Source: an uncultured Desulfovibrionaceae bacterium
GTDB lineage: Bacteria; Desulfobacterota; Desulfovibrionia; Desulfovibrionales; Desulfovibrionaceae
Direction: 5' to 3'
DNA: 56,780 bases
Assembly (NCBI GenBank): GCA_964369505.1
Contig: CAYJGS010000001.1
Coordinates: 1,605-58,384, forward strand
Position 1 is the first letter of the stretch. Every line of letters starts with the position of its first letter. The position numbers and the translations under genes were made by a program. Below are positions 6,552-50,601 of the stretch, piece after piece. Under the pieces are notes generated by a model. It had not been told where the DNA came from and made no database searches. It saw only the letters and a list, made by a program, of their open reading frames with translations.

Positions 6552-7799
6552 TTATTTAACAATACCAATATCAACTTTTTTTAAAAAATCGTATAGCTCA
6601 CTTGCTCGAACAACACTAATAGGATAATCTTTAATATAACCATCTTCACCAAATGCTATATCACCCATTGGTGTTGATAGTGTTTGCGTGTTCATATAAT
6701 CAAGAACTATATTTATATCATTAGAGCCTGCCTGCTCTATGGCATTATATAAAATGAATACCATACGGTACACCATGGGAATTATATAAAATGTTGTTTT
6801 TATTTTTCCTTCATTGTAAAGCTCTTTCATTATCGAAATTAAATTATCATCAAGTCTATAGTTTAAAATTATATAGCTTTTGTTAATATTTGGTAGAAGT
6901 TGTAATTCTTCCCAAGTGATAGAATCTTGGTTGATAATAAAATCATTATATTTAGGCTTTTGTAAAAAATTTTTATTATTAGTATAAAAATCTAAAAACA
7001 TAGCTCTATTACCAATAGAAATAATATTTAGATCCGGTGCAAATTTTAAAGATTCATTGATATATCTTTGCACGTGACCACTTAGGTTTTTCTTTTCGTA
7101 ATTTAAAGTTCCTAACATATTTAAGTTGTTTGAATGAAAATTACGCAAAATAACACTGGAATATTTTTTACTGTATAAGTCGTCTTCATGCATTATGATA
7201 AAAGGCGTTTCTGTATCATATTTTTGAGCATTCCATTGCGCTGCAGCTTTTGCCTCGGTAAAAACTGAAGCAGTGCTTGAAAAATAACTCTTAGCACGGG
7301 GAACTGCTAAATCTATATCCCCTTGTGTCATGGTGATTTGCAATAAATTGGCAGCAGCAACTTTATTTTTTATAACGGAAACAATGGAAGAACTAAAAGG
7401 ACCAATTATTCCAAAAATATCTTCTTGAGCCATAATTTCACTCAATAAATCGTCACTTTTTTTTGCTGATCCTTCATTATCATACCACAATATTTCGATT
7501 TTTTTCCCGTGTTCTTTCTTTTGAGCGTTGATTTTATTGACAGCAAACTCTATGGTATCCTTTAATTTTATATTATGGTTGTCCCAATTTTCCCAAGCTC
7601 CAAGAGCGGCAAATTTTATAATTTCTCTTGGTTTTTTGTAATATTCTAATCTTTTATTGCCAAGTTCCTGCAGGCTTAGTTCTTGCGTTGATATGAAAGA
7701 TGAAAAAGTGCCCAAGCTTTTTAAGTCATTAGCATTAATCAAAAAAAATATAGGAATTATTGCAATAAATAATATTATTAGAACAGCCTTCTTTGGCAT
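6552..7799 (-). CDS. Membrane-anchored or secreted type-1 periplasmic-binding-fold protein (LivJ/ANF-receptor-like)
   Basis: The ORF is 415 aa. It has an N-terminal hydrophobic anchor or signal (AVLIILFIAIIPIFFLI). An alternating beta-alpha pattern and length are typical of Peripla_BP_6-type proteins. A GGAGA RBS lies 5 nt upstream of the ATG. The fold assignment is from pattern recognition only. Confidence 0.6.
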   Translation of the reverse strand: MPKKAVLIILFIAIIPIFFLINANDLKSLGTFSSFISTQELSLQELGNKRLEYYKKPREIIKFAALGAWENWDNHNIKLKDTIEFAVNKINAQKKEHGKKIEILWYDNEGSAKKSDDLLSEIMAQEDIFGIIGPFSSSIVSVIKNKVAAANLLQITMTQGDIDLAVPRAKSYFSSTASVFTEAKAAAQWNAQKYDTETPFIIMHEDDLYSKKYSSVILRNFHSNNLNMLGTLNYEKKNLSGHVQRYINESLKFAPDLNIISIGNRAMFLDFYTNNKNFLQKPKYNDFIINQDSITWEELQLLPNINKSYIILNYRLDDNLISIMKELYNEGKIKTTFYIIPMVYRMVFILYNAIEQAGSNDINIVLDYMNTQTLSTPMGDIAFGEDGYIKDYPISVVRASELYDFLKKVDIGIVK

Positions 7800-7936
7800 T
7801 GTTTTCTCCGTAGGCTTGGGGCTCGCAAATAAATTTTTTTCGGAATTTTATATAAATCATCTTAAAAAAAGGTAACAGTGCTCAGAGTCCATTTCGCCAT
7901 ATAGCATACATGCGTTATTACGCTTATTTCATTATA

Positions 7937-7976
7937 TAAAAAACTCCCAACGGTTTTGCTTTGCACCGTTAGGAGT
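7937..7976 (-). terminator. Rho-independent terminator or attenuator directly after the precursor-peptide gene
   Basis: On the minus strand, the stem actcctaacggt/accgttgggagt (one mismatch) is followed by TTTTTT. It lies 61 nt after the precursor stop and upstream of the next gene. Confidence 0.7.
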
Positions 7977-8036
7977 TAAAATGAACAACGGATATTACCC
8001 GCTAATAGCAATTACGTTGTAAGTAGTCGCACGTAT

Positions 8037-13248: not shown

Positions 13249-14361
13249 ATGCTTTCAAAGAAACATCGTATACGCGTTTTGCACATAAGTGCATCTTCTG
13301 CCATAGGCGGCGGGCCTGAGCATGTATGGCAATTGGTTAAGCATTTGCCGCATCCCATAGCGTCTTATATTGCAGCGCCTGATTCTAAGCCCTATGCTTC
13401 ACGCTTTGCTGCAGCTGTGGGGCAAGAACGCATGGTTATTATACAACAACGCCGTTTTAGCCTTGCAGCTTTTTGGCGTGTTTTTCGTTTTATCCAAAAA
13501 CATCAAATCCAGATAATACATTCCCATGGTAAGGGAGCCGGCATATATGGGCGTTTATTAGCTTTAATTACACATGCCCAGAGCGTACATACTTTTCACG
13601 GCGTGCATTTACCGCAAAAAAAAATCCCGCAAAAGCTGTATATTTTTTTGGAGCGCGTGCTCTGCCGCATAAGTAAAGTGTGCATAAATGTTTCCAAGGG
13701 GGAACAAGAGCTTACGCAAAAATTACAATGGTTTTCCAAGCAGGCAACGGTTATATATAATGGGGTGCAAGTGCCGGAAACTATGCCGCAAAGGCCTATG
13801 CCAAAGCCATTTACTATCTTGCACATAAGCCGCTTTGACCAAAAACCAAAAAATTCTCTCTTTGTATTACCCATAGCTCACGCTTTGCAAGAAAAGCATA
13901 TGCTGTCTGCGTGCACTTTTGTGCTCATTGGCGATGGGGAACAAAGGCTAGAGCTTGAACAAGCTGTACATACTACAGGCTTTGACCATATCTTTCAATT
14001 TTTGGGGCAACAAGATTGTGTGCAGCCCTTTTTTGCCAATGCAGGCTGCCTTTTATCCACATCGCATTATGAGGGCATGCCCTTGGCCGTTCTTGAAGCC
14101 AAAGCCCATGGCGTACCGGCGGTGGTGAGTGATGTGATGGGCAATAGAGATGCCATAGAGCATGCATGCACAGGCTTATTATATACACCGGGCAAGGCCG
14201 CATGCGCGGCAGATGCCATTATACACCTTATGACACACGAAAAAGAATGGCATAGCATGTGTGCACAGGCGCATGCACAGGCCAAAAAGCATTTTACCAT
14301 ACAAAATATGGCTCTTGCCACAGCAAAAGTCTATGAAAATACCGTTGAGGCCAAAATATGA
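13249..14361 (+). CDS. GT-B glycosyltransferase (GT4/glycosyl transferases group 1)
   Basis: The protein is 370 aa from the internal ATG (MLSKKHRIRVLHISASSAIGGGPEHV). The C-terminal motif is STSHYEGMPLAVLEAKAHGVPAVVSDVMGNRD (E-x7-E type). The upstream ORF-track extension overlaps the previous gene. Confidence 0.8.
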   Translation: MLSKKHRIRVLHISASSAIGGGPEHVWQLVKHLPHPIASYIAAPDSKPYASRFAAAVGQERMVIIQQRRFSLAAFWRVFRFIQKHQIQIIHSHGKGAGIYGRLLALITHAQSVHTFHGVHLPQKKIPQKLYIFLERVLCRISKVCINVSKGEQELTQKLQWFSKQATVIYNGVQVPETMPQRPMPKPFTILHISRFDQKPKNSLFVLPIAHALQEKHMLSACTFVLIGDGEQRLELEQAVHTTGFDHIFQFLGQQDCVQPFFANAGCLLSTSHYEGMPLAVLEAKAHGVPAVVSDVMGNRDAIEHACTGLLYTPGKAACAADAIIHLMTHEKEWHSMCAQAHAQAKKHFTIQNMALATAKVYENTVEAKI

Positions 14362-15443
14362 AAATAGCCTACTATGCCTCACTCGGTAATGCACAATTTC
14401 AAGGTGTTGCGCATAAATTGGCTAGGCAAATAACTGTATGGAATGCCATGCCCCATGTGCAAGCCAAACTTTTTTGCCGCAGTGTTAACACTGCATGGTC
14501 TTTACCGGAAAAAGTATATCCTTTCAAGGGTATGCCTGTTTTATGTTATGACGCAAAACTCTTACAAGATATGCAAGCTTTTGCGCCGGATGTGGTCTAT
14601 GTGCGCGATGAACTTTGCGGCCCCATGCTTTTTGCTATTCTACGCGCTTTTCCGCAAAAAGTAGTACTTGAGGTGAATGCAGATATATTGCAAGAGTTGC
14701 AATTAGAAGGGCAAAAATCTTTTAAACGAAAGCTGGCATGGTATTATGCCATATTTACCTATGGTTTTGTAAAAAAACGCATACGCGCTTGCGCATTGGT
14801 TTCAGGGGAGTATGTGCCATTATTTCCTCTGCTTGAACCATCGTGCAAAAAAGTTTTTCCTAACAGCATAGATGTGCAAAATATACCCATTTGTAAAAAA
14901 AATAGAGAAAGCGCGCCCTCTCGCCCAGCGCTTATTTTTGTGGGAACCCCAGGTCAGGTTTGGCATGGTGTAGATCTGATGTATCCTTTAGCCAAGGCTT
15001 TACCTGATTTTGATTTTCATATTGTAGGGCCTTATGCAGAAAAAAATGCTCCGCCAAATATGATTTTTCATGGCTATGTGACAGGAAAAGACTTGTTAAA
15101 GCTGTATGCGCAATGCCATGTGGGTGTGGGAGCATTGGCTTTATTTCGCAAAAACCTTTATGCAAACAGCACATTAAAGGTGTGTGAATATATAGCGCAT
15201 GGTTTACCGGTAATTACCGGCTATACCGAAATGATTTTTAAAGAACATGCTCCCTCTTGGGCTTTAGAACTAAAAGGCGAAGAAGGTATGTTTACTAAGG
15301 CTCAAAATATTTTTAAAGTGCAAGAATTTGTTTTGCAAAATGCAAGGCGCGTTGTTTCCCACGCAGAAAGCGCGCCCTATATTGACGCGCATATGTGGGA
15401 AGCAAAAAAAATACTTTGGCTACAAAGTATTTTAGAGTGCTGA
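14358..15443 (+). CDS. GT-B glycosyltransferase-like protein
   Basis: The ORF is 361 aa and overlaps the previous gene by ATGA. It contains FVGTPGQVWHGVDL...FHIVGP...FHGYV...STLKVCEYIAHGLPVITG. The last codons and the TGA stop lie inside repeat copy A. Confidence 0.7.
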   Translation: MKIAYYASLGNAQFQGVAHKLARQITVWNAMPHVQAKLFCRSVNTAWSLPEKVYPFKGMPVLCYDAKLLQDMQAFAPDVVYVRDELCGPMLFAILRAFPQKVVLEVNADILQELQLEGQKSFKRKLAWYYAIFTYGFVKKRIRACALVSGEYVPLFPLLEPSCKKVFPNSIDVQNIPICKKNRESAPSRPALIFVGTPGQVWHGVDLMYPLAKALPDFDFHIVGPYAEKNAPPNMIFHGYVTGKDLLKLYAQCHVGVGALALFRKNLYANSTLKVCEYIAHGLPVITGYTEMIFKEHAPSWALELKGEEGMFTKAQNIFKVQEFVLQNARRVVSHAESAPYIDAHMWEAKKILWLQSILEC

Positions 15444-15584
15444 CAAAGTCAGCACGACCGATAAATCAAGAGTAGGCGCAATTTATTTGCGCCGTTAAGC
15501 GATTGATTTTCGTGCCTTTCCACCAAGACAGTTTTACTGTCTTAGGTGGCGCAAACGCCCGTAAGGGGGGTTGTCATCAAACTG
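15434..15584 (-). repeat. Multi-hairpin intergenic repeat element, copy A (subtype 1, inverted orientation)
   Basis: The reverse complement is near-identical to copy C (43743-43894). This includes ccac.taagacagtaaaactgtcttggtgg, ggaaaggcacgaaaatcaatcgcttaacggcgcaaataaattgcgcc and gtgctgac...gtcagcac. Confidence 0.85.
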
Positions 15585-15608
15585 GATACTTTGGTTACAA
15601 ACTATTTT

Positions 15609-17567: not shown

Positions 17568-18742
17568 TACTTAGTCCTTGGATGATGATTATGTATGTTC
17601 ATAATAGTTTGGCGCAGTTTTTCGTCATTTTGTTCCCAACAAAGCTTTTTTGCTGCTTCATGGGCCTTTGCTTTAAAATTGTCCACTTTTTCAGGACTTA
17701 GGGATTGCATTGCTTTTGTAAGGCTTTGCGGGCTAAAATCTTCTGTAACAAGCCCAATTCCATGTTCTTTAGTAAGCATGGCCATATCTTGTACAGGGGA
17801 AACTATAACACCTAAACGAGCTTGAATAAATTCAAAAAATTTATTGGGTAAGGCATGTTGATGATTAAAGGCATTGGACGGTAACAAATAAACGCCCATA
17901 TCGTATTGGGCAATAAAAGAAACAATTTCAGACATGGGCACTGTAGGAATAAAGTTAACATGGGGGGTGTTTTGAGCCAATGCTTGAAGCTCTTTTAAAT
18001 ATGTGGGATTTTGCGAACTAGGGGCAAGCATAAAGTCAAGGCTTGCCGTAGCTTCTAAAGGTTTAAAGGCTTCAATCATAAGTTCTAATTTTCGCCCAGG
18101 CATGGCAAAGCCGTGATGGATACAGCGTATTGTTTTAGAGGTAGGTTTAGGCTCTATATGATGATAATAAGAAAGACTGGGTAAAACTTCGCAGGTGACT
18201 CCATATTCTTCTTTAAAGCCTTGAGCTAAACCGGGGGAAACCGTAAAAACCACATCTGCTTGCGGAAGGTATTTTTTACAAAGATATTCTTTTAATCCTT
18301 TAAAAAAAATATTCCAAACAATACTGTGTTCCAATTCTCGTGGATAAAATTCACGCGCATCCATAATAACACGGCAATGTTCTTTATTTTGCGGTAAGTT
18401 TTTAACTGCTATGGCTAAAGGTAAAAGCATGATATCCTGACAAACTATGAGAGAAAAAGTGCGCTTTTGTAACGTAGCAAATGTTTCTTTTAAAAGTGGA
18501 GACCAAATATCATTTTCATACTTTTGTAAAAGCAAAGTGCATGCTTTAAGCAGTTTTCCTATATTATTTTTGGGTTTTTGCACTATTTCAACAAGTTCTA
18601 TATTATCTATATTCATTTTGAAACTTGGAGCAGGAGGCGCAGAACATACGGTCACATGACCAAATTCTTGCAAGATGCTACTAATACGTGTGGGGCGCGG
18701 CGATTGGCCAAGGGATGCCCAAAAAAGTTGCAATATTTTCAT
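17567..18742 (-). CDS. Putative glycosyltransferase / capsule-biosynthesis protein, paralog 1
   Basis: The ORF is 391 aa. By eye it is about three-quarters identical to the 390-aa product of 19943-21115. It shares long identical blocks such as RTFSLIVCQDIMLLPLAIAVKNLPQNKEHCRVIMDAREFYP. The function is inferred from context only. Confidence 0.5.
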   Translation of the reverse strand: MKILQLFWASLGQSPRPTRISSILQEFGHVTVCSAPPAPSFKMNIDNIELVEIVQKPKNNIGKLLKACTLLLQKYENDIWSPLLKETFATLQKRTFSLIVCQDIMLLPLAIAVKNLPQNKEHCRVIMDAREFYPRELEHSIVWNIFFKGLKEYLCKKYLPQADVVFTVSPGLAQGFKEEYGVTCEVLPSLSYYHHIEPKPTSKTIRCIHHGFAMPGRKLELMIEAFKPLEATASLDFMLAPSSQNPTYLKELQALAQNTPHVNFIPTVPMSEIVSFIAQYDMGVYLLPSNAFNHQHALPNKFFEFIQARLGVIVSPVQDMAMLTKEHGIGLVTEDFSPQSLTKAMQSLSPEKVDNFKAKAHEAAKKLCWEQNDEKLRQTIMNIHNHHPRTK

Positions 18743-19942: not shown

Positions 19943-21115
19943 TTATTTCTTTAAAATAATGTTCTGCATACGCATAATGGTTTGTTGCAATTTTTCGTCA
20001 TTGCGTTCCCAGCAAAGCTTTTCTGCCGCTGCGTGCGATTTTGCTTTAAAGGTGTCCACTTTTTCAGGGCTCAAGGATTGCACAGCCTTTCTAAGGCTTT
20101 GTGGGCTAAAATCTTCTGTAACAAGCCCAATTCCATGTTCTTTGGTGAGCATGGCCATATCTTCTACAGGAGAAACGATAACGCCCAAGCGAGCTTGAAT
20201 AAATTCAAAAAATTTGTTGGCTAAGGAATATTTATGATTAAAAGTGTTGCACGGCAATAAAAAAATTCCCATATCGTATTGTGCAATAAAAGAAACAATT
20301 TCAGGCATGGGCACTGTGGCAATGCATGTAATGTGTGGGGTGTTTTGCGTTAAATCTTGAAGTTTTTTTAAATATAAGGGGTTTTGCGGATCCACTGCAA
20401 GCATAAGGTCAAGGCTGGCTGTACCCTGCAAGGGTTTAAAGGCTTCAATCATAAGCTCTAATTTTCGCCCGGGAAAGGCAAAACCATGGTGAATACAGCG
20501 TATTGTTTTAGAGGTAGGCTTAGGTTCTATGTGGTGATAATAAGAAAGGCTTGGTAAAACTTCGCAGGTAATGCCATATTCTTCTTTAAAACCTTGAGCA
20601 ATTCCGGGGGAAACCGTAAAAACCGCATCGGCCTGCAGAAGATATTTTTTACAAACATATGCACGCAGCCCACCTAAAAAAAACTTCCAAATAACATTGC
20701 TTTCAAATTCTTTTGGGTAAAATTCGCGCGCATCCATAATAACACGGCAGTGTTCTTTATTTTGCGGTAAGTTTTTAACAGCTATGGCTAAGGGCAAGAG
20801 CATGATGTCCTGACAAACAATGAGGGAGAAAGTGCGCCTTTGTAAAGAATCAAAGATTTCTTTTATGTGTGGTTGCCAAATATCATGTTCATAGTTTTGC
20901 AAAAGTAAACTGCAGGCTCGAAATAGTTTTTCTGCAATATTTTTACGCTGCTGCTGTATTTCGATAAGGTCAATGTTGTCTGCCTCTATTTTGAAGTTTT
21001 GAGCAGGGGGTGCCGAACACACGGTTACATGTCCAAACGTTTGCAAAACAGCGTTGAAGCGTGTGGGGCGTGGCGATTGGCCAAGGGATGCAAAAAAAAG
21101 CTGTAAAATTTTCAT
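19943..21115 (-). CDS. Putative glycosyltransferase / capsule-biosynthesis protein, paralog 2
   Basis: The ORF is 390 aa and is a paralog of 17567-18742. It shares DNA stretches such as an identical 41-nt run gggctaaaatcttctgtaacaagcccaattccatgttcttt. Confidence 0.5.
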   Translation of the reverse strand: MKILQLFFASLGQSPRPTRFNAVLQTFGHVTVCSAPPAQNFKIEADNIDLIEIQQQRKNIAEKLFRACSLLLQNYEHDIWQPHIKEIFDSLQRRTFSLIVCQDIMLLPLAIAVKNLPQNKEHCRVIMDAREFYPKEFESNVIWKFFLGGLRAYVCKKYLLQADAVFTVSPGIAQGFKEEYGITCEVLPSLSYYHHIEPKPTSKTIRCIHHGFAFPGRKLELMIEAFKPLQGTASLDLMLAVDPQNPLYLKKLQDLTQNTPHITCIATVPMPEIVSFIAQYDMGIFLLPCNTFNHKYSLANKFFEFIQARLGVIVSPVEDMAMLTKEHGIGLVTEDFSPQSLRKAVQSLSPEKVDTFKAKSHAAAEKLCWERNDEKLQQTIMRMQNIILKK

Positions 21116-29365: not shown

Positions 29366-29450
29366 GCGAGAATGGCGGAATTGGTAGACGCACTGGACTT
29401 AGAATCCAGCGCCGTGAGGTGTAAGAGTTCAAATCTCTTTTCTCGCACCA
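29366..29450 (+). tRNA. tRNA-Leu (anticodon UAG), CCA encoded
   Basis: I folded the cloverleaf by hand. The acceptor stem is gcgagaa/ttctcgc. The anticodon stem-loop is ctgga-cTTAGaa-tccag. There is a long variable arm, a T arm aagag-ttcaaat-ctctt, and a discriminator A followed by CCA. Confidence 0.9.
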
Positions 29451-29507: not shown

Positions 29508-29537
29508 CAAAATCTCTGCACAATCCATTGTGCAGAG
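29508..29537 (-). terminator. Rho-independent terminator after the 905-aa membrane protein gene
   Basis: The perfect 11-bp inverted repeat is ctctgcacaat/attgtgcagag. On the minus strand it is followed by ATTTTG. It lies 35 nt after the stop at 29572. Confidence 0.6.
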
Positions 29538-29571: not shown

Positions 29572-32289
29572 TTAGCTCCAAGCTTTATGCATGGCACGTA
29601 AAAGCTCTTGCGGGTTATTTTGTAATGCGGGCTCTTGAAAAAGCAAAGAGCGTGGATGGCGCACAAGCGATGGTGATAATCTTTCGTGTATTCCTTTTTC
29701 AAGATACCAGCTAAAGGGTTGCGCTCCTGACCAATATAAGATGGGGTTCATAAATAAAAAAACAAAAGAATTAAACCAAGGCACAAGCTCCATACCCTGA
29801 TACATGCCTTGGGTTAGATAATGCCAATAAGGCGAAACGGTGTTATTAACTTCTGGATTTTGCTTTTGATACCATTTTTTATCGAAAACGCCGGAAGAAA
29901 GCGTAAGTCGCATGAGGGTATCTAAGTCTTTACGTGCATAATCTTTCACTTTATTAAGCTCTGCGTCTTCAATGGAGAATTGTAAAGCAAACCTTCCTAG
30001 TGCTTGATAAACATGCAAGGAGTTATCCACAAGTGCCGCAGCCTTTACCAAGGTTTCAAAGGCTGCATCAAGCTTCCCTTGTTTTTGCAATATATGGGAA
30101 TAGATAATCCAATTCCAGGATATTCTTTCTCGAAAAGAACAGGCTTCTTTACTCTTTTTTTCAGCTTCGTCAAAATTTTGAGCAAGCATTTCAGCAACCA
30201 TGGCAAGCTCAAAATACATATTATTTACAATTTTAGCCTTTGCATTTGTTTGTAATGCTCTTGATATGGTGCACGCCTCTTGATATCTTCGCATACTTAA
30301 TAACACACAGCAGGCATAATAGTGAGAGTTTATATCACTGCCGTATTTCTTTAATTGTTCCACATAATCAAGTGCTTTTTCTTCTTGTTGCAATTTAAGG
30401 CAGGCACAAGCTTTTGCAAAACAAAATTCTGCAGAGTCGTGCATATGAGAATTGTTTTGTATAAAGGGCAATGCCTTTTCGGGTAATACTTCAAGCAATT
30501 GTTTTGCATGACATAAATTTATTTCTTCGTTACTGGTTTCTTTTGTGGTAAGCTCTTGCACCAATGAAAAACCACGTCGTACTTGCCCATGCAAAAATTC
30601 TGCTTCGCCAAGTTTTAAGCAGGCTTCGTTAGATTCAGGAAAGCGCGCATATGTTTTTTCTAACACCTTTATAGCTTCAGTGTATTGTAGTCGTGAAGCC
30701 AGAGTTAGGCACTCTTGCAATGAAGCGTTGCCTTCTACATAACGTTTATGTATGCGATAAATGGAGGCATTAGGATCATAAGGCTCAAGCTTTTCTAAAA
30801 TAACACCGTCACGCACGGCTATGGCATTACAAGGAAGTATAGAAATATTTTCATCTTCTTGAGGTAATGCTTCTTTGATTGCTCCTAAAGATAAAAAAAC
30901 ATGATGGAAAATATTTACATGCGAGCATACGTTTTGTGCAGCATAACCCTGCGGCCAACGAATAGCGCAGCGCACACCAAAATGATCCAAAGCAAGATCT
31001 GCAATGCTCACACCACGGTCTAACGTGGCTTGTGTGGCGTCTTTACCAAACCATACATTGCTGTGCCGCAAAGAACCGTGATCCCCCACAGCAATAATAA
31101 GGGCTTCTGGATCATTTTGGACAATACTTTCTACAATGCTTTTTATTTCTTTTTGTGCGCTTTGTATGGTTTTTGTGTAGGTTTGTATAAAGTCATTGGC
31201 ATCTTTTTTCCATGGAATTCTAGCGCTTTGGTGTGTGGCTCCAAAGCGCATGGCAAAAAAGCGAGGTGCTTGTTGCTTGAGCGAAAGCCTGTGCTGCAAG
31301 GCTGCAAAAATATGTTCAAAAGAGCATTCTGCTTCCACTTCAAAAGGGTCTACACTGCCAATGAGCCTACGCAAATAATAGGATTGAGCCCAAATGGGCG
31401 CAAGAAGCATGTGCAATGCATATTGAGTGGGAGACATATAAAAAGATGCGTATTCATTTTTCTTCATATAGCGCCCAAACACATAATAACTTATATCAAA
31501 AAATTCGCACTGATAACCGTTTTCTCTAAGCACATCTAAGGCAAAAGCTTCTTCTTGCTTATTTTCTAAAAGCTGGCAATTAAAGAGTGTTTTCAACGCT
31601 GTAAGCGTAGAAGGCCTATTGCAAAAAAAGTTTTTATAATCTGTAAAATTATACTTTTCAAATACTGCGTCAGTTGCCGCATCGTCTATGTCGTATAGTT
31701 TTTTTAAAGATTGCGCCGAAAGATAGGATTCAAGCAATAAAAAATATATATTTTTTTTGTGCGCTAAAGAAATATTTTTCTTTTCACGCTCTACATAGTG
31801 CGTGCTTTGTATATTAGCAGCAAAAATAATTTGCTTTTCTTCATGTCTTTTTTTGTATGCGTCCAAAAGAGAAAAAGCAAAAAAAATACCAAGAATTGTG
31901 TTTAAAGGAACTATTGAATACAGTGATGCTGTTGCCACAAAAACAATATAGAGAAAAAATATAGTTAGAATTCTATGTTTCTTTTGAATTAAGTTTTCGG
32001 TAAAAAACCTTTCGTGCAAAAAAACAAAAAGGGTCAAAGCTATAAAACTCCCCAAAAACGAAGTTAGGGAAATCCCATAGGTATACAAAGATTGCGCTAT
32101 AGGCAAAGTTTTTATTTGCTCGAAAATCCAAAAAGCACCAAAGCCTCCCCCCATGGCTAGAAATAGCACTAGGCTTGTAGCGTGGATGAGTTGTCGCGAA
32201 GTAAAAAAACGTTGATTTAGGGCGCAAAAGCTCACCGTAGGCGTAAGTATGGCAAGAAAAATAGCTAATGCAGCATTATCTAGCCACAT
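29572..32289 (-). CDS. Polytopic membrane protein with sulfatase/alkaline-phosphatase-superfamily domain and C-terminal TPR repeats
   Basis: The ORF is 905 aa. It has about 5 N-terminal TM helices. A central region contains LLLESY... and AVGDHGSLRH, which resemble LTA-synthase or phosphotransferase-type sulfatase motifs. The C-terminal third is TPR-like (alternating A/L/Y helices). Confidence 0.65.
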   Translation of the reverse strand: MWLDNAALAIFLAILTPTVSFCALNQRFFTSRQLIHATSLVLFLAMGGGFGAFWIFEQIKTLPIAQSLYTYGISLTSFLGSFIALTLFVFLHERFFTENLIQKKHRILTIFFLYIVFVATASLYSIVPLNTILGIFFAFSLLDAYKKRHEEKQIIFAANIQSTHYVEREKKNISLAHKKNIYFLLLESYLSAQSLKKLYDIDDAATDAVFEKYNFTDYKNFFCNRPSTLTALKTLFNCQLLENKQEEAFALDVLRENGYQCEFFDISYYVFGRYMKKNEYASFYMSPTQYALHMLLAPIWAQSYYLRRLIGSVDPFEVEAECSFEHIFAALQHRLSLKQQAPRFFAMRFGATHQSARIPWKKDANDFIQTYTKTIQSAQKEIKSIVESIVQNDPEALIIAVGDHGSLRHSNVWFGKDATQATLDRGVSIADLALDHFGVRCAIRWPQGYAAQNVCSHVNIFHHVFLSLGAIKEALPQEDENISILPCNAIAVRDGVILEKLEPYDPNASIYRIHKRYVEGNASLQECLTLASRLQYTEAIKVLEKTYARFPESNEACLKLGEAEFLHGQVRRGFSLVQELTTKETSNEEINLCHAKQLLEVLPEKALPFIQNNSHMHDSAEFCFAKACACLKLQQEEKALDYVEQLKKYGSDINSHYYACCVLLSMRRYQEACTISRALQTNAKAKIVNNMYFELAMVAEMLAQNFDEAEKKSKEACSFRERISWNWIIYSHILQKQGKLDAAFETLVKAAALVDNSLHVYQALGRFALQFSIEDAELNKVKDYARKDLDTLMRLTLSSGVFDKKWYQKQNPEVNNTVSPYWHYLTQGMYQGMELVPWFNSFVFLFMNPILYWSGAQPFSWYLEKGIHERLSPSLVRHPRSLLFQEPALQNNPQELLRAMHKAWS

Positions 32290-33962: not shown

Positions 33963-34320
33963 GAATGACTCCAGCTTGTACATGTTGTAGCATTGTGTAT
34001 CTATAAAAACTCTAGAAAAGCATATGCTACTGTTAAGCTTTTGTAAAGTCTTAACGCTCTAACAGGCTGATAGGCATCTTTAAAGGGATAGACAAGCATA
34101 GGGCGCAGAAGCTGGATAATAGGTGACAAATGCAATCCTTTAGTGTATGAGTCCCCTACAAAGGGTAAAATTTCTTTATTTACGGATGGGGTTATTATTT
34201 AGGATGTGTCGCTTTAAAAAGCTTGTTCGAGAAGAGCGCCCTGTTTAAATTAATATTTTAGTATATTGTAAAAAATTATTGTCGTATTGATTTTTTCAAT
34301 GGATTTACAGGGTGGGCTTT

Positions 34321-37300
34321 ATGAAAAAAACATATGCTCCGATTAAAAAAATACTTGATTGGATGTCGTATATTTCTGATAAATTAGGTTTTGGTTTGCG
34401 TGCCAAACTTATTTTGCTTTTTGTAGTTATTAAAGTTGTTCCTCTTATTCTTATAGCTCTTGTTGCATGGTATCAAGCCGTTGAACTTGGCAATGAAATG
34501 CGCTCGCGTACAGAAAATATAGCTGACCGTGCTGTAGAAGAATTAAGTGATGCTGGTGCCTTGGCAGTTGCCGATGCTGTAAAAGCTCTTGACGATAGAG
34601 CCACTGACGAAATAGAGCGCATGACCACCGACGCCGCCCAAAACTTAGCCACATTTTTATACGCTCGCGATGATGATTTGCGCTTTTTATCCACGCTCGA
34701 ACCCAGCGAAAAAATATTCAAAAATTTCCTTGCGTCCAAAACAGGGCTTCTTGTTAAACCGCGTGAATGGGTGCTGGCTGAAGACGGCAAATCTTGGGTT
34801 CCTGCTACAGAATATGTAAAATCCCCTACAATTACTTTGCGTAACGAGCAAAATAAAACAAGTTTTCAATCTCGCCCGCCTGATAATTTTATATACGAAT
34901 CTGTTCCCCTATACTTAGAAGCCACATATATAGACCTTAAAGGGCAAGAAATACTCAAAGTAACTTCTTCTGATTTAATGGATCCGAGCCTTAAAAATGT
35001 GGCAGACAGAAAAAATACATTTTGTAAGGCGGAAGGGTATTTTTCCGAATTACAAAAGCTTAAAACTGGTGAAATATACGTGTCTGATGTCATAGGCGAA
35101 TATGTTGGTTCATCTATAATAGGTATGTACACGCCTGAAAATGCCCAAAAAAAAGGCATTTCTTTTGAGCCAGAAAAAGCTGCCTATGTGGGAGATGAAA
35201 ATCCCAATGGTAAACGTTTTAAGGGCTTAGTGCGCTTTGCCATGCCGGTGGAAAAAAATGGTGAGAAAGTTGGCTATATTACCATAGCTCTTAATCACGA
35301 TCATATTATGAGCAAAGTTGAACATATTGCGCCAGACAAAAAGCGCTATGCAGACATTTCCAGTGCCGCTCATGGAAATTACGCATTTATATGGGATCAT
35401 GAAGGGCGCAGTATTTTTCATCCTCGTCACCATTCTATTGCTGGATATAATGCCGAAACCGGCCAATTGCAGCCGACTTTTCTTGATGATGTTACCTATA
35501 AAAAGTGGCAAGAAAGCGGTTTAAGCTATACAGATTTTATCAAAAATGAACCCCAATTTAGCAATCAAAGCCGTGAGAGAAGACCCGCTCTTGATGCCAT
35601 AAAAAATGGTATGATAGGTCTTGATTGTCGCTATTTGAATTTTGCCCCGCAGTGTACAGGTTGGTATAATTTAGCTCAAGACGGCGGTTCTGGATCATTT
35701 TTAATATTGTGGAGCGGCCTTTGGAAGCTCACCACAGTGTCGGCTATACCATACTATACAGGGCAATATGGAAAAAAACTTGTTGGTTTTGGTATACTCA
35801 CCATGACCATGGACATTAATGATTTCCACAGTCCAGCTTTAGAAACGCAAAAAAATATTCAACGGCTTATAGAAGAAACTGATGAGGAACTCTCTAATAT
35901 TTCAAGGCAAACCTTTGCCTCCATTGCTAATAATTTATGGAATACAGCCACAAGCCTTTCGGTATCCACTCTTTTAATGACTCTTTTGGTTGTGCTTGTG
36001 GCCATTTGGATGGCTTCTGCTCTCACAAAAAATATCACACAACTTATCCAAGGTATCTCACAATTTAGTGCAGGTTATCGTAGATATAGGTTTAATATTC
36101 CAAGAAATGACGAATTTGGGGTTTTGTGCAATTCTTTGGATGAACTGTTTAATAGCATTGTGAATAGTACAAAATCACCCATGACCATCACCGATCTTGA
36201 CCAAAAAATATTGTATATGAATAGGTTAGCTCTGGAAATTTTGGACAAGACTTTTGCAGCGGTAAAAGGAAAGTATTATCCTGAATTGACTATTTTTGGT
36301 GAAGGAAGTGGACCCATACCTTTGTTTTTAGCCAACGAGCCTTCTTCTATCAGCTATCACGTGGGTACAAAGCGCTATTATAAAAGTAGAGTTTCGTATT
36401 TGGTAGATAAAAAAGGGGATAATATCGGTTATATCATCGAAGCAGAAGATGTAACGCAGCTTATTGCCGAGCAAGACCGCATTGAAAGAGAAAGAGTTAT
36501 ATTAGATATGGTGCTTTCGGCATCACCGGATATGATTTGGTATAAATCTGTAGAAGGTATTTATCTTGCGGTAAATCCACGCTTTGCCAGTATGATAGGC
36601 CTTAGCCCCGAAGAAATACAAGGCAGACACGATAAAGAATTACTTTCAGAATCCCTTTATGCCATTAGTCAAGAATGCATGGGGCCACTGCTTAATGAAG
36701 GTGCACCCACATATACAGAAAGCCGCGTAAGCTTTGCCGATGGGCACGAAGAAATATTAGACATTGTGCGCACGCCAATTTTTGGGCCCGATGGTAATGT
36801 TCGGGGTATTCTTGGGGTGGGGCGTGATGTTTCTTTGCGCGTAAATGTAGAAAGTGAATTACGTCAGACACAGCGCGATCTTATGAAAGCTGTGACCGAA
36901 GCCAATGAAGCCAGCAAATCAAAAAGCGAATTCTTGGCCCGCATGAGCCATGAAATCCGCACACCCATGAATGCTATTATTGGCATGACCAACATTACAA
37001 AACGCATACTTACCGAAGAAAAATGCTCCAAAGAAGTCTTGTTGCCCAAAGTTTTGCAAATTGAATCTTCTTCTATACATTTGCTTGGTTTGCTCAATGA
37101 TATTCTTGATATTTCAAAAATCGAAGCCGGTAAAATTGAGCTTAGCGAAGAAAGTTTTGACCTGCCCAAATTGGTTAACGATGTGGCTTCTATCATCGCG
37201 CCGCGTTGTGACAGCAAAAATATTGCTTTTACTATAAATGTAGAGGGTTTTGATTGTAAGCATTTTATTACAGACGTACTGCGTTTGCGCCAAATCCTCA

Positions 37301-38058
37301 TTAATCTTTTAGGCAATGCCGTAAAGTTTACCCCGGAACTGGGCTCTATCACCTTCCATGTTGCTTTAAAAGAGCGCAAAGAGGGTAGGGTGTGTATATT
37401 CTTTTCTGTGGCTGATTCTGGTATAGGCATAGCTCCAGAAAGACTCAAAAATCTCTTTGCGCCCTTTGAACAAGGTGGCGGACATATTACGCGTATGTAC
37501 GGCGGCACAGGCCTTGGTCTTTCCATCAGCAGAAGCATTGCCAGACTGCTTGGCAGTGAAATAGAAGTGATAAGTGAAGAAAATAAAGGCAGCGAATTCT
37601 TTTTCTCTCTTTGGATAGAAGAAGATACCAGCATAGCAAATGTCGAAGATCATAATGATAACACAAGCATTACACCCGGAAAACGCGTTTTACTTGTGGA
37701 TGATGTAGATATTAACCGCATAATTGCCATGGAACTTTTAGCGCCCTTTGATCTGATTATAGACGAAGCAGGCGATGGCACTGAAGCTGTACAGATATTT
37801 GAAAAATCTGCGCATAATTACTACGATTTGGTGCTTATGGATATTCAAATGCCCAAAATGAATGGTTATGAAGCCACAAAGGCTTTGCGCGCCCTAGATA
37901 GAAGCGATGTCAAAACAATCCCCATAGTGGCCATGACTGCCAATGCCTTTAAAGAAGATATAGATATGGCTTTTGCCAGTGGTATGAATGGACATGTTGC
38001 TAAGCCCATCGAAATGGATAAGCTTGTAGATGTGTTAAAGAAATATTTGGGGAAATAG
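34321..38058 (+). CDS. Hybrid sensor histidine kinase/response regulator (TM, Cache-like, TM, HAMP, PAS x2, HisKA, HATPase, REC)
   Basis: The H-box is SHEIRTPMNAIIGM. The N and G boxes are LINLLGNAVKFT and DSGIGI...GTGLGLSI. The receiver domain has LLVDDVDINR...DLVLMDIQMPKMNG...K. I preferred the ATG at 34321, and a GTG at 34312 is possible. Confidence 0.9.
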   Translation: MKKTYAPIKKILDWMSYISDKLGFGLRAKLILLFVVIKVVPLILIALVAWYQAVELGNEMRSRTENIADRAVEELSDAGALAVADAVKALDDRATDEIERMTTDAAQNLATFLYARDDDLRFLSTLEPSEKIFKNFLASKTGLLVKPREWVLAEDGKSWVPATEYVKSPTITLRNEQNKTSFQSRPPDNFIYESVPLYLEATYIDLKGQEILKVTSSDLMDPSLKNVADRKNTFCKAEGYFSELQKLKTGEIYVSDVIGEYVGSSIIGMYTPENAQKKGISFEPEKAAYVGDENPNGKRFKGLVRFAMPVEKNGEKVGYITIALNHDHIMSKVEHIAPDKKRYADISSAAHGNYAFIWDHEGRSIFHPRHHSIAGYNAETGQLQPTFLDDVTYKKWQESGLSYTDFIKNEPQFSNQSRERRPALDAIKNGMIGLDCRYLNFAPQCTGWYNLAQDGGSGSFLILWSGLWKLTTVSAIPYYTGQYGKKLVGFGILTMTMDINDFHSPALETQKNIQRLIEETDEELSNISRQTFASIANNLWNTATSLSVSTLLMTLLVVLVAIWMASALTKNITQLIQGISQFSAGYRRYRFNIPRNDEFGVLCNSLDELFNSIVNSTKSPMTITDLDQKILYMNRLALEILDKTFAAVKGKYYPELTIFGEGSGPIPLFLANEPSSISYHVGTKRYYKSRVSYLVDKKGDNIGYIIEAEDVTQLIAEQDRIERERVILDMVLSASPDMIWYKSVEGIYLAVNPRFASMIGLSPEEIQGRHDKELLSESLYAISQECMGPLLNEGAPTYTESRVSFADGHEEILDIVRTPIFGPDGNVRGILGVGRDVSLRVNVESELRQTQRDLMKAVTEANEASKSKSEFLARMSHEIRTPMNAIIGMTNITKRILTEEKCSKEVLLPKVLQIESSSIHLLGLLNDILDISKIEAGKIELSEESFDLPKLVNDVASIIAPRCDSKNIAFTINVEGFDCKHFITDVLRLRQILINLLGNAVKFTPELGSITFHVALKERKEGRVCIFFSVADSGIGIAPERLKNLFAPFEQGGGHITRMYGGTGLGLSISRSIARLLGSEIEVISEENKGSEFFFSLWIEEDTSIANVEDHNDNTSITPGKRVLLVDDVDINRIIAMELLAPFDLIIDEAGDGTEAVQIFEKSAHNYYDLVLMDIQMPKMNGYEATKALRALDRSDVKTIPIVAMTANAFKEDIDMAFASGMNGHVAKPIEMDKLVDVLKKYLGK

Positions 38059-38089
38059 CAATCACACAAATGATGCTTTAGCACAGCAG

Positions 38090-38347
38090 TTATCTGCGCT
38101 TGGCAACGCCAGAAGCCTTGGTCACTTTTGTTCCTGCATATGTAAAGCTGCCCTTTACCATGCCCAAAAAAGTTTCTTTATCAATGGCAATAACTTTACC
38201 GCAAAGGCACCAAACTTTGCCATGGCGCTCATGCACGTCGTACATTTTACTTATACGTGTTTTATGGCAACGCAAAACTTCGCCTTGCCCCAGTTTTTCA
38301 TATTTCCAAAGTTTACGACGACATGCCGCACATTTTATTGTAAGCAT
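38090..38347 (-). CDS. Small Cys-containing (zinc-ribbon-like) hypothetical protein
   Basis: The ORF is 85 aa. It has a CAAC pair plus C...CLC in a basic protein. No family was recognised. Confidence 0.45.
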   Translation of the reverse strand: MLTIKCAACRRKLWKYEKLGQGEVLRCHKTRISKMYDVHERHGKVWCLCGKVIAIDKETFLGMVKGSFTYAGTKVTKASGVAKRR

Positions 38348-38384
38348 ACATATACCTTATCCGAATATTTTAGCAAAATCACAG

Positions 38385-38422
38385 CAGTTAAGGAAACACT
38401 GATTAAATCGTGTTTCCTTAAT
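38385..38422 (+). repeat. Hairpin direct repeat, left copy (flanks repeat element copy B)
   Basis: The sequence is cagttaaggaaacactgattaaatcgtgtttccttaat. It has a 12-bp stem ttaaggaaacac/gtgtttccttaa. It is repeated at 38574-38612 with a compensatory a:t to g:c change. Confidence 0.8.
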
Positions 38423-38576
38423 CAATGAGATACAAACACCACTTCGTGGCGTTTGCGCCGCCGAAAGACAGCAAAGCTGTCTTTGCGGAAAGGCACAAAA
38501 ATCAATCACTTAACGGACAAGCAAAGCTCGTCCTATTCTTGATTTTTGGTCGCATTGACTATCGTCAACGCTCCAG
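38423..38576 (+). repeat. Multi-hairpin intergenic repeat element, copy B (subtype 2, full length)
   Basis: It shares the cores ccacttcgtgg, gtttgcgcc, gacag...ctgtc, ggaaaggcacaaaaatcaatc.cttaacgg and tattcttgattt with copies A and C. It is near-identical to copy D over its 3' two-thirds. Confidence 0.85.
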
Positions 38577-38612
38577 TTAAGGAAACGCCGATTAAATCAG
38601 CGTTTCCTTAAT
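38574..38612 (+). repeat. Hairpin direct repeat, right copy (flanks repeat element copy B)
   Basis: The sequence is cagttaaggaaacgccgattaaatcagcgtttccttaat, with stem ttaaggaaacgc/gcgtttccttaa. Confidence 0.8.
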
Positions 38613-38647
38613 AGCAAGAAGTTTCATACAATAACAAATCTTTTCTA

Positions 38648-39670
38648 TCAGCGAAAATCAACTTCAATAATACGTATTTCGCTACGTGTCCCAAACCTAT
38701 AGGGCATTTGCCAAGGCCCCACAATCTTCCAAAAGCCAACGCTCACACCAGATGTGACAATGGTGTGTAAATCTTCAATTTTTTTATGGCCATAAGCATT
38801 GGCAAATTTTGTTTTCAACAACAGATTATAGGGGAAAAATTGTCCGCCATGGGTGTGGGCAGAAAGCTGTATATCAGCCTTTAGCTCTAAGCTTTCAGGT
38901 ATACTTTGTGGATTGTGGTCTAGAACAATAATCGGCATATCAGGGGAAATGCTGTATTCTTGGTATAATTCTTCTAAAGTTTTTCTTTTTCCCTGTACAT
39001 AATCTCTTCTAACATCATCTCTGGCAATAAATTGTATACCGTTTAATGTTAAAACGGTATCGCGCAAAGTTGTAATACCTAATGTTGAAAGATATTTAAT
39101 GTTTTCTTCAATGTCATTCCCATAATATTCGTGATTCCCCAATATGGTGTATATGCCTTGCGGGGCTTTTATGTTTGCAAACACCTGTACATAATCATCT
39201 TTTATTTTTGTGTGACTATTTTGTAAGATATCACCACCAAAAAATACTATATCTGGCTTTTGCGCATTTATCTTTTCAACCATATCTTCAAACAAGCTTT
39301 TGTTCGACGTTGTTGTGAGGTGCAAATCTGCAATAAAGGCTATTTTAATGTTTTTTATGTCTGATTTTTTATTAAGCGTTATCTTAGTGTGCGCTATTGT
39401 TGCATTTCTGTAATTATAATAGCCAACACTGCCCACAAAAATTAAAGCAAGGGGAATAATTATACATAATGCTTTTTTGGGCAGAGGGAAAATGCAATAA
39501 TGTACCAAAAAAAGTACGATGGAGATCATAAGAAAATAATGCACATAATATATGTAATTTCCAAGGAAAATACCATAAAAGTCATTTTCGATGACAAAGT
39601 TTTTTCTTAATTTAGCCAAAGGATAAATGCAAAAAAACATAATAATGCTGTATAGTAATAGTTTTATCAT
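38648..39670 (-). CDS. Membrane-anchored calcineurin-like metallophosphoesterase (YaeI-like)
   Basis: The ORF is 340 aa with 3 N-terminal TM helices. The motifs are IADLH, GGDIL, GNHEYY and AHTHGGQ. Confidence 0.85.
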   Translation of the reverse strand: MIKLLLYSIIMFFCIYPLAKLRKNFVIENDFYGIFLGNYIYYVHYFLMISIVLFLVHYCIFPLPKKALCIIIPLALIFVGSVGYYNYRNATIAHTKITLNKKSDIKNIKIAFIADLHLTTTSNKSLFEDMVEKINAQKPDIVFFGGDILQNSHTKIKDDYVQVFANIKAPQGIYTILGNHEYYGNDIEENIKYLSTLGITTLRDTVLTLNGIQFIARDDVRRDYVQGKRKTLEELYQEYSISPDMPIIVLDHNPQSIPESLELKADIQLSAHTHGGQFFPYNLLLKTKFANAYGHKKIEDLHTIVTSGVSVGFWKIVGPWQMPYRFGTRSEIRIIEVDFR

Positions 39671-42828: not shown

Positions 42829-43202
42829 AAGTACCTAGCATGTTATTAAAAATTAATGTTTTAGGGTGATTGAAATGCATACCCAATGCCCTGTTTTCTG
42901 CATACAAAAGCATAACAAAGAGCCTCTTTAAGGTCAATGCCCATACAGTAATCCAAAACCAAACTCCAATAAATACAGTATATTTTTAGCATCAGCACAG
43001 CATGTACGCAGTGCTCTTGATTGACATTATCTAAATGCGTATTACGTTCAATATTGCATAAGAAGATTGTTATGAACACGGCCATATTCCATATAAACTG
43101 CCGAGTTATATGGCTTTGATTTTACGATTTTTCATGCGCATAGGAGCATACCTAAAAGACGGTAACAGAGAGAACGCATTAAATTTTAACAAAGAAGTTA
43201 GT

Positions 43203-43568
43203 ATGTTAAAAAAAATAGACCATTTAGTTATAACCACCAGTCAGATTGAACCTTGTCTAAAGTTTTATAAAGCCTTGGGCTTTAATGCAAACTTTACTAA
43301 TAATAGGTATGAACTGCTTGCTCAAGATTTTAAAATAAATGTACATGTTATGGGTAGAGAACTTTCTCCGCATGCTAAAAATATTCAAACCGGCAGTGCA
43401 GATTTTTGCATTGAAGTGCAATGTATTGAAGATTTTAAGCAATGCCTTGAGCGTCAAGGCATAGAAATTGAACTAGGTATAGTTAACAGAACAGGAGTCA
43501 AGGGTAGTATGAAGTCAATATATTTGCGTGATCCAGATGGAAATTTATTGGAATTTTGCAGTTATTAA
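43203..43568 (+). CDS. VOC (glyoxalase/bleomycin-resistance/dioxygenase) family protein
   Basis: The protein is 121 aa from the internal ATG (MLKKIDHLVITT...IYLRDPDGNLLEF). The longer ORF-track start at 43110 has no support. Confidence 0.75.
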   Translation: MLKKIDHLVITTSQIEPCLKFYKALGFNANFTNNRYELLAQDFKINVHVMGRELSPHAKNIQTGSADFCIEVQCIEDFKQCLERQGIEIELGIVNRTGVKGSMKSIYLRDPDGNLLEFCSY

Positions 43569-43742
43569 TAAAACGCTTCCTTAGCAGCATAAAGCGATGT
43601 AAGGTTTGTCAAAAATATACCTTGCCTATATCTATTTTTTTTTGCATTATATTGCTCTGTTTTTTACAAGAGTTTTTCCTACAAAAATGAGAGCAATAAT
43701 CTTAGAAAAGCCGTTTTAAAAAACTGCTCAAACATAAGCAGA

Positions 43743-43894
43743 CAGTTTGATGACAAACCCCACTTCGTGGGTTTGCGCCACTTAAGACAGTAAAACTGTC
43801 TTGGTGGAAAGGCACGAAAATCAATCGCTTAACGGCGCAAATAAATTGCGCCTACTCTTGATTTATCGATCGTGCTGACGAAAGTCAGCACTCT
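43743..43894 (+). repeat. Multi-hairpin intergenic repeat element, copy C (subtype 1, full length)
   Basis: It is a 152-nt unit. Hairpins are cccacttcgtggg, ccacttaagacag-taaaa-ctgtcttggtgg and gtgctgac-gaaa-gtcagcac. The outer helix aaaatcaa/ttgattt encloses ggcgcaa-ataaa-ttgcgcc. It is near-identical to the reverse complement of copy A. Confidence 0.85.
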
Positions 43895-43946
43895 GGCTGC
43901 TCAAACATGAGCAAACTGTGCTGAAACTGCCTGATAGGACACGTAT

Positions 43947-50307: not shown

Positions 50308-50370
50308 AGACGGGAGAGGCCGGCGCACACTATGTGAAAACTCTGCACGATTATTTTTACATAAAATTTA

Positions 50371-50469
50371 CTGTCCAGAGCAAAAGGCACAAAAATCAAT
50401 CATTTAACGGGCAAGCAAAGCTCGCTCTATTCTTGATTTTTGGTCGCATTGACTGTCGTCAACGCTCCG
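50371..50469 (+). repeat. Multi-hairpin intergenic repeat element, copy D (subtype 2, 5'-truncated)
   Basis: The sequence aaggcacaaaaatcaatcatttaacgggcaagcaaagctcgctctattcttgatttttggtcgcattgactgtcgtcaacgctcc matches copy B with a few substitutions. The 5' hairpins are missing. Confidence 0.8.
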
Positions 50470-50601
50470 TGAGACCCTACGCAATGAATTGCGAAGAGGT
50501 CTCCATGTGCGAAAAACCTTTGTGACGGCAAAGGTCTGCCAAACTCCATAGGCTGTACCTAAATACTATATTCGGCAGAAAGCCAAAGAACTTTAGATTT
50601 T

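Follow-up and report, generated by a model that had tools for sequence, protein, structure and literature searches.

The four multi-hairpin repeats of the window, by which we mean the whole stretch of 56,780 nt analysed here, are probably copies of two related families of miniature, non-coding transposons that reside in a clade of uncultured low-GC Desulfovibrionaceae. Several characters by which MITEs are recognised are present: small size, no coding capacity, terminal inverted repeats, target duplications that are specific to each locus, and many dispersed copies. A preliminary description of this DNA had spoken of a MITE-like look, which the terminal inverted repeats together with the target-site duplications bear out. 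Three of the copies (A, B and C) have the architecture that we call type 1, and the fourth (D) belongs to type 2; the two types share a core.

A search of the 56,780-nt window by nhmmer recovered exactly four copies (E 1e-34 to 1e-55), and a covariance model of the core, run with its filters off, recovered the same four (E 1e-21 to 1e-25), the next match having E>0.1. Hence the presence of A-D at the sites first proposed is supported by both methods, and the shared cores and helix variants quoted for them in the preliminary description are indeed found in the copies. Compared with shuffled sequences, the folding of every copy is far more stable (z -5 to -7 for A, B and C). The copies are as follows:

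Copy A, 15434..15584, minus strand: type 1, 151 nt, between convergent glycosyltransferase and asparagine synthase genes
Copy B, 38423..38573, plus strand: type 1 architecture, 151 nt, with a decayed left inverted repeat (CAATGAGATACAAAC)
Copy C, 43743..43895, plus strand: type 1, 153 nt, starting with CAGTTTGATGACAAAC and ending with GTCAGCACTCTG
Copy D, 50336..50503, plus strand: type 2, 168 nt, with inverted repeats GAAAACTCTGCACGATT and AATTGCGAAGAGGTCTC, core present

Three of them (A, B and D), rather than two as first counted, lie between convergent genes.

The family is by no means confined to the window. When species-representative genomes were scanned with a query of 22 specified core bases, more than 109 core loci were obtained among the matches listed, and every locus among these matches comes from one of about 20 bins named "uncultured Desulfovibrionaceae" in study ERP123703. 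With nhmmer, the listed loci and the window together gave at least 137 hits. All counts given below for type-1 and type-2 copies refer to the window and the loci from the matches listed. Among the loci listed, 35 of 111 core matches lie within 150 nt of a locus end, which fits a repeat at which assemblies break. The listed loci have a mean GC content of 42% and the window of 40.6%. A sigma-54 regulator encoded in the window shares 92% identity with a protein from bin CAYJHG (GCA_964369535.1) and 72-74% with proteins named from Desulfovibrio isolates or uncultured Desulfovibrio (D. porci, D. legallii), and these identities place the window in the same clade as the bins. The genes of the window are ordinary chromosomal ones for polysaccharide synthesis, ABC export, chemotaxis and two-component systems. 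The bins with ERP123703 loci appear unusually rich in small repeats; the flanks of four loci (L007, L049, L074 and L106) contain other short repeat families of ~55-130 nt that occur in many loci of these bins.

Elsewhere the core was not encountered: it had no match in plasmids (PLSDB), GenBank phages or IMG/VR, and it was absent from 241 million JGI metagenome records, a collection without these organisms. In a cmscan against Rfam 15 at gathering thresholds, no match to the element was found, the sole match in the window being a tRNA-Leu (29366-29450), and at E<=10 copy C drew only chance-level matches (E>=2). Our literature search found no account of this repeat family, nor of any miniature element that duplicates whole palindromes. 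With neither an Rfam nor a literature match, the initial impression that the element is not a named family holds.

Type-1 elements are 151-153 bp long, and A, B and C are joined by 30 other distinct complete copies among the loci listed. Their terminal inverted repeats are 16 nt long, CAGA(C/G)TG(A/C)TGACAAA(C/G), and in the consensus 13 of the 16 positions agree; the preliminary description was right that such repeats exist, though not in their length, which it gave as 12 nt. From left to right, the left end CAGACTGATGACAAAC is followed by hairpins H0 and H1 and then by GGAAAGGCAC, after which a long-range helix, AAAATCAA/TTGATTT, encloses hairpin H2. The last hairpin, H3, overlaps the right end GTCAGCACTCT(G/C). 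Copy B carries the core variants that predominate in type 2. A gene for a small protein was considered and rejected, since the sole long frame through the element (42-45 codons) is not conserved and is broken in 15 of 38 copies. The CUGAUGA at the left end also recalls a hammerhead ribozyme, but the layout of a hammerhead core does not fit and there is no such Rfam hit at E<=10.

Individual copies show some peculiarities. Two type-1 copies contain extra self-pairing sequence in the H2 loop, one of ~65 nt (L025, minus strand, ~7715-8000), where the flanking hairpin duplication is still present, and one of ~130 nt (L073, minus strand, ~1-450). At copy A, the glycosyltransferase frame (14358-15443, plus strand) crosses the hairpin next to the element and ends at a TGA (15441-15443) inside it; the insertion may have changed the C-terminus of the glycosyltransferase or supplied its stop codon. 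Upstream of copy C lies a VOC/glyoxalase gene (43110-43568, plus strand) without a close relative in the clade; its best matches, proteins named from Bacillus and Clostridia, share 69% identity with it. These matches outside the clade suggest horizontal acquisition.

The most informative feature of type 1 lies just outside the element. Among the loci listed and the window, 25 of 29 complete type-1 copies have direct repeats on their two sides that adjoin the element ends, leaving 0-1 nt in between. These repeats are 15-38 bp long (median 24 nt), reaching up to 34 nt by automated scan and 38 and 39 nt at copy B as measured by eye, and their sequence is different at each locus. In the control, in which the upstream flank of one copy was compared with the downstream flank of another, scores did not exceed 8. 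Nearly the full length of the repeat folds as a hairpin in 23 of the 25 cases, with stems of 5-14 bp; a T-rich tail follows 19 of the 25 repeats and an A-rich head precedes 16. The hairpin fold with its T-rich tail or A-rich head identifies the flanking repeats as palindromes resembling intrinsic terminators, and the fact that they are locus-specific and abut the element argues that the target hairpin was duplicated at insertion. The preliminary description had missed these duplicated hairpins (17-39 nt), which bracket each of A, B and C in the window:

C, upstream copy of target hairpin, 43724..43740: CTGCTCAAACATAAGCA
C, downstream copy, 43897..43913: CTGCTCAAACATGAGCA, 16/17 identical to the upstream copy
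A, hairpin on the 5' side of the element, 15586..15608: AAAATAGTTTGTAACCAAAGTAT on the minus strand
A, hairpin on the 3' side of the element, 15411..15433: AAAATACTTTGTAGCCAAAGTAT on the minus strand, followed by a T run
B, upstream copy of hairpin, 38385..38422, 38 nt: CAGTTAAGGAAAC...GTTTCCTTAAT
B, downstream copy, 38574..38612, 39 nt: CAGTTAAGGAAAC...GTTTCCTTAAT

The two hairpins at B differ by a compensated change in the stem (ACAC/GTGT vs ACGC/GCGT), which suggests that both have been kept as working hairpins since an old insertion. In line with a terminator-like target, 17 of 19 copies with both neighbours called (among the loci listed) have at least one neighbouring gene whose 3' end faces them. 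Relative to the neighbouring genes, 6 copies point the same way and 5 are antisense, and another 6 sit between genes that converge. The four copies of 29 without matching flanks include two from the same bin (CAYJOQ): the element of L044 has unlike hairpins on its two sides, and the right-hand one matches the left-hand hairpin of L019. Such an exchange of flanks suggests recombination between copies or a chimeric assembly.

When the flanks were used as queries for empty sites, no match was found among the listed loci, and the comparison with relatives likewise yielded no strict empty site. However, three relatives carry one terminator-like hairpin and no element 3' of the orthologous phosphoesterase gene, in a different gene order, where the window has hairpin, copy B and hairpin. 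The same region differs in another respect. In the window (34312-39670) the histidine kinase and metallophosphoesterase genes are convergent with B between them, whereas in the closest bin (L111, CAYJHG010000125.1) they are co-directional and 40 nt apart, and the contig stops right at the last codon of the phosphoesterase gene, its stop codon. This difference in arrangement may be a repeat-associated inversion.

These observations can be accommodated by a simple model of type-1 transposition. A transposase supplied in trans would bind the 16-bp terminal inverted repeats, and the element would integrate at DNA palindromes, mostly the hairpins of intrinsic terminators. The two strand transfers would take place at the outer edges of the palindrome, and gap repair would then duplicate the whole hairpin (15-38 bp), so that each neighbouring gene keeps a terminator. 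A precedent exists among full-length insertion sequences. IS1630 of Mycoplasma fermentans, a member of the IS30 family, is reported to generate variable target inverted-repeat duplications of 19-26 bp, with lengths of 16, 23, 25 and 26 bp in strain M64, and ISMhom-1 is likewise reported to have a long and variable target inverted-repeat duplication (PMC2853133, PMC3317919, PMC7648426). The likeness lies in the duplication of whole palindromes, 16-26 bp there and 15-38 bp in type 1, and the hallmark of IS1630, a duplicated inverted repeat that is entire and variable in length, is matched by the 23 hairpins among the 25 type-1 repeats. In contrast, IS1630 and ISMhom-1 are autonomous elements of 1.2-1.4 kb from Mollicutes, with a transposase gene and inverted repeats of ~27 bp, whereas type 1 is a 152-bp non-coding element of Desulfovibrionaceae with 16-bp repeats. 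No IS30-type gene with type-1 ends was found in the window or in the 632 kb of loci.

The second family has a different architecture. Among the loci listed there are 41 full copies of type 2, ~207 bp in length, whose ends are 17-nt inverted repeats (RAGACCTCTGCACAATT) unlike those of type 1 and which are flanked by 5-bp target duplications. The 3' half consists of the 3' ~85-90 nt of type 1, i.e. the core, followed by a palindromic unit, and in the 5' half the two arms of this unit, first the left and then the right, enclose an AT-rich stretch of poor conservation. In the window, copy D is flanked by the following:

D, left target duplication, 50331..50335: TATGT
D, right target duplication, 50504..50508: CATGT, 4/5 match

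With inverted repeats of its own and the TATGT/CATGT flanks, D is a complete but internally shortened type-2 element; the earlier reading of D as a 5'-truncated copy thus gives way to that of a complete 168-bp element (50336-50503) of the second architecture, with its own ends and a 5-bp duplication. Type 2, with 17-bp ends unlike those of type 1 and a duplication of 5 bp, would be a MITE of the conventional kind. The palindromic unit that provides these ends also exists on its own: solo units of ~34 nt occur, including one at 29516-29535 of the window (AATCTCTGCACAATCCATTGTGCAGAGAGTT), between the tRNA-Leu and the gene at 29572-32289, and it is the arms of this family of units that serve as the type-2 inverted repeats. 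A pattern search returned 14 hits to the palindromic unit in the listed loci, some of which are reverse-oriented ends of type-2 elements, and two type-1 copies (L071, L091) sit at ~34-nt palindromic units. The solo units and the position of these two copies suggest a route for the origin of type 2, in which a type-1 3' half and a flanking palindromic unit probably became mobilisable together by way of the arms of the unit.

The core shared by the two types, ~90 nt long, is built from the long-range helix, two hairpins and conserved unpaired segments with an IHF-type site at the centre, and it is presumably kept by selection. The IHF-type site coincides with an unpaired segment, AATCAATC(G/A)(C/T)TTA, that is present in all copies, is invariant outside two N positions and occupies positions 77-89 of the 152-nt element. 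It fits the IHF consensus, WATCAANNNNTTR preceded by an A/T tract, and was located as follows:

C, 43819..43831, plus strand: IHF-type consensus AATCAATCGCTTA (WATCAANNNNTTR) at the centre of the copy, invariant columns
A, 15496-15508, minus strand: IHF-type site, by motif search
B, 38500-38512, plus strand: IHF-type site, by motif search
D, 50394-50406, plus strand: IHF-type site, by motif search

By chance, 6.6 occurrences of the motif would be expected in the window; there are 10, of which four lie in the copies. Within the 13-nt consensus, the family varies solely at the two N positions, and the conserved unpaired bases reach beyond the consensus. The core may aid transposition, for instance because bending by IHF would bring the ends together or in the form of a folded single strand. 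A site of this kind is also present in the end region of a known transposon, the outside end of IS10/Tn10 (IS4 family), which contains WATCAANNNNTTR; this stretch is the IHF site of IS10. The type-1 left end moreover has CTGATGA like IS10. On plasmid R100, the IS10 end sequence is found with 100% identity beside a gene for an IS4-like transposase. The differences are that the IHF site lies ~30 bp from the end in IS10 and ~77 bp in type 1, and that the IS10 end starts with CTG whereas type-1 copies start with CAG. IS10 makes 9-bp duplications, and the overall resemblance to it may be coincidental.

Both the pairing and the sequence of the core are conserved. In 33 distinct type-1 copies from the loci listed and the window, 98.4% of cells pair, and 14 of the 41 predicted pairs are changed on both sides, against 5.6±1.2 in shuffles (0 of 500 reach the observed value) and 0-2 in slid controls. 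Across 63 distinct cores of both types, 10 of 25 pairs are double-changed, against 5.8±1.0 in shuffles (0/500) and 0-4 in slid controls. Although the shuffle control ignores the relatedness of the copies, the slid controls and the spread of the variants over both types make a purely phylogenetic artefact unlikely. Compensatory changes above the controls indicate that pairing is under selection, and the initial argument from covariation for selection on a fold is upheld in both data sets. In the outer helix, the closing long-range pair is G-C in 45 cores, A-U in 17 and unpaired in one; the other nine pairs are invariant or have a single unpaired cell, and are uninformative for covariation. Covariation means selection for pairing, and speaks neither for RNA over DNA nor for one strand over the other.

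As to sequence, the mean pairwise identity of the core is 90% in type 1 and likewise in type 2 (among the loci listed). In type 1, the ends reach 84-89% and H0 plus H1 74%; in type 2, the left inverted repeat has 86%, the 3' hairpin 81% and the AT-rich part 55%. Element copies at unrelated loci or in different genomes are 85-93% identical, compared with 70-72% for the coding DNA of orthologues in the window and in the bins and 83% for nusA between two bins. The core is therefore the most constrained part of both elements, which could be due to a role in cis during transposition, common to both, or to an independent function. A purely cis-acting role in transposition does not predict that the core is better conserved than the ends and common to two types of end.

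This raises the question of whether the core functions as a structured RNA or single-stranded DNA, such as a small RNA or a transposition helper, that is carried on two vehicles and conserved because of that function. Such a reading is compatible with mobility and overlaps with the MITE explanation, and we regard it as unlikely, though it has several points in its favour: no helix is without compensatory changes, and one long-range pair shows them too; the identity of 90% exceeds that of the inverted repeats and of host genes; and the core is common to elements with different ends and different duplications. The covarying long-range pair speaks for a folded single strand and against duplex DNA. 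Strand preference offers conflicting hints. On the written strand the core has ~70 A.C cells, of which one H2 pair accounts for 34 and two H3 pairs for 30 and 7; on the complement these would read G.U, and for each of the four window copies the complement also gives the more stable fold. Nevertheless, the wobble bias is inconsistent, as H1, with 11 G.U cells on the written strand, favours this strand while H2 and H3 favour the complement; the type-1 wobble cells amount to 15 G.T on the written strand and 22 A.C (G.U on the complement). In addition, the RNA reading is opposed by the lack of an Rfam match even at E<=10, by the mixed orientation relative to flanking genes given above, and by the AT-rich region 5' of the core in type 2, which is not conserved. 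It is also opposed by the lack of a sigma-70-like promoter inside the copies: neither such a promoter nor, in a check by eye, a sigma-54 promoter was found inside A or C. The bolder proposal that the ~90-nt core is an independently selected, mobile module of structured RNA or single-strand DNA, captured by two transposon vehicles, is in our opinion quite doubtful. If it is true, however, this module has been conserved better than the ends and housekeeping genes across ~30 species, and its role might be that of an RNA helper of transposition or of a regulatory RNA, useful to the host, that is spread by terminator-targeting transposons.

Whichever function the core has, the MITE explanation calls for an enzyme. 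The genes of the window include no transposase, Y1/HUH transposase, Cas1, reverse transcriptase or intron-like sequence, and neither the window nor 632 kb of related loci from fragmented bins yielded an autonomous partner. The listed loci contain no inverted repeats at an IS-like spacing; the long repeats that loci have in common proved to be nusA and a prophage-like segment; a search for hairpin direct repeats 0.5-3.5 kb apart gave no transposase partner; and the metagenomes offered no case in which the left half of the element runs on into other sequence. Since no transposase partner was found, the family of the enzyme is a guess. In one related bin, fragments of an IS3-type transposase (HTH_Tnp_1, HTH_21; L114, 1172-1968) adjoin a phage integrase; they are unrelated to the ends of the type-1 and type-2 elements. 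The window also has a 41-nt exact direct repeat (17730-17770 and 20103-20143) inside two genes of the polysaccharide cluster.

One may argue that duplications of this length reflect a route without a DDE transposase, such as a Cas1-like (casposase-like) integrase or target-primed reverse transcription, because the duplication has the length of the palindrome (15-38 bp), much as the repeat is duplicated in spacer integration (on casposons, see PMC5137440). We consider this very improbable, as the element bears classic terminal inverted repeats, the window has no Cas1, reverse transcriptase or intron-like sequence, and the duplication of palindromes already has a transposon precedent in IS1630.

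Still less probable is that the repeats are single-strand substrates of HUH enzymes, i.e. REP/REPIN-RAYT or IS200/IS605-derived palindrome-associated elements, as the preliminary description had considered. Each copy does contain several short hairpins with covarying stems, and elements of this kind are likewise short, hairpin-rich, intergenic and of high copy number. However, REP/RAYT and IS200/IS605 systems have neither target duplications nor terminal inverted repeats, and the window elements have both (16-17 nt in the case of the inverted repeats), which disfavours the HUH reading. Furthermore, the ends lack a conserved GTAG-type REP head, and no Y1/HUH transposase was seen in the window. 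Finally, the notion that the copies are immobile, being chance similarities or decaying local duplicates of a regulatory or terminator sequence, has nothing but their intergenic position in its favour and can hardly be credited in view of E values of 1e-21 to 1e-55, more than 100 dispersed copies with unrelated flanks in ~20 genomes (among the matches listed), and locus-specific duplications that abut defined ends.

With mobile MITEs as the preferred reading, other small elements can be compared. Correia elements duplicate TA and, unlike the window elements, have inverted repeats of 26 bp; there is no sequence similarity between them. Correia elements show neither duplication of a whole hairpin nor a core common to two types of end. 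Nevertheless, MITEs including the Correia elements are known to contain IHF sites and stable stem-loops, and the Correia/NEMIS elements of Neisseria resemble the window families in their size (~100-160 bp), high copy number, terminal inverted repeats, internal IHF site, stem-loops and intergenic or 3'-UTR placement (PMC10969869). The SPRITE, BOX and RUP repeats of Streptococcus pneumoniae are also small interspersed repeats with terminator-like hairpins and nesting, without sequence similarity to the window elements, but SPRITE itself resembles a terminator, while in type 1 the terminator is the duplicated host target outside the element. In the IS1182/IS1272 mechanism, the element uses the arms of the target hairpin as its own ends and makes no duplication, and this mechanism is therefore different.

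In summary, type 1 would be, within the literature searched, the first miniature transposon family shown to duplicate entire terminator palindromes, as whole-palindrome duplication was previously reported only for a few full-length IS30-type elements of mycoplasmas. The copies explain the poor assembly of these genome bins. They also raise the question of why a folded internal core, common to two types of end, outlasts the ends in conservation. For the host, the duplication suggests a "safe-landing" strategy, in which the neighbours of the element retain their terminators; as each neighbouring gene keeps one, hundreds of insertions would be tolerable. At the same time, the copies amount to a natural collection of terminator hairpins from uncultured bacteria.
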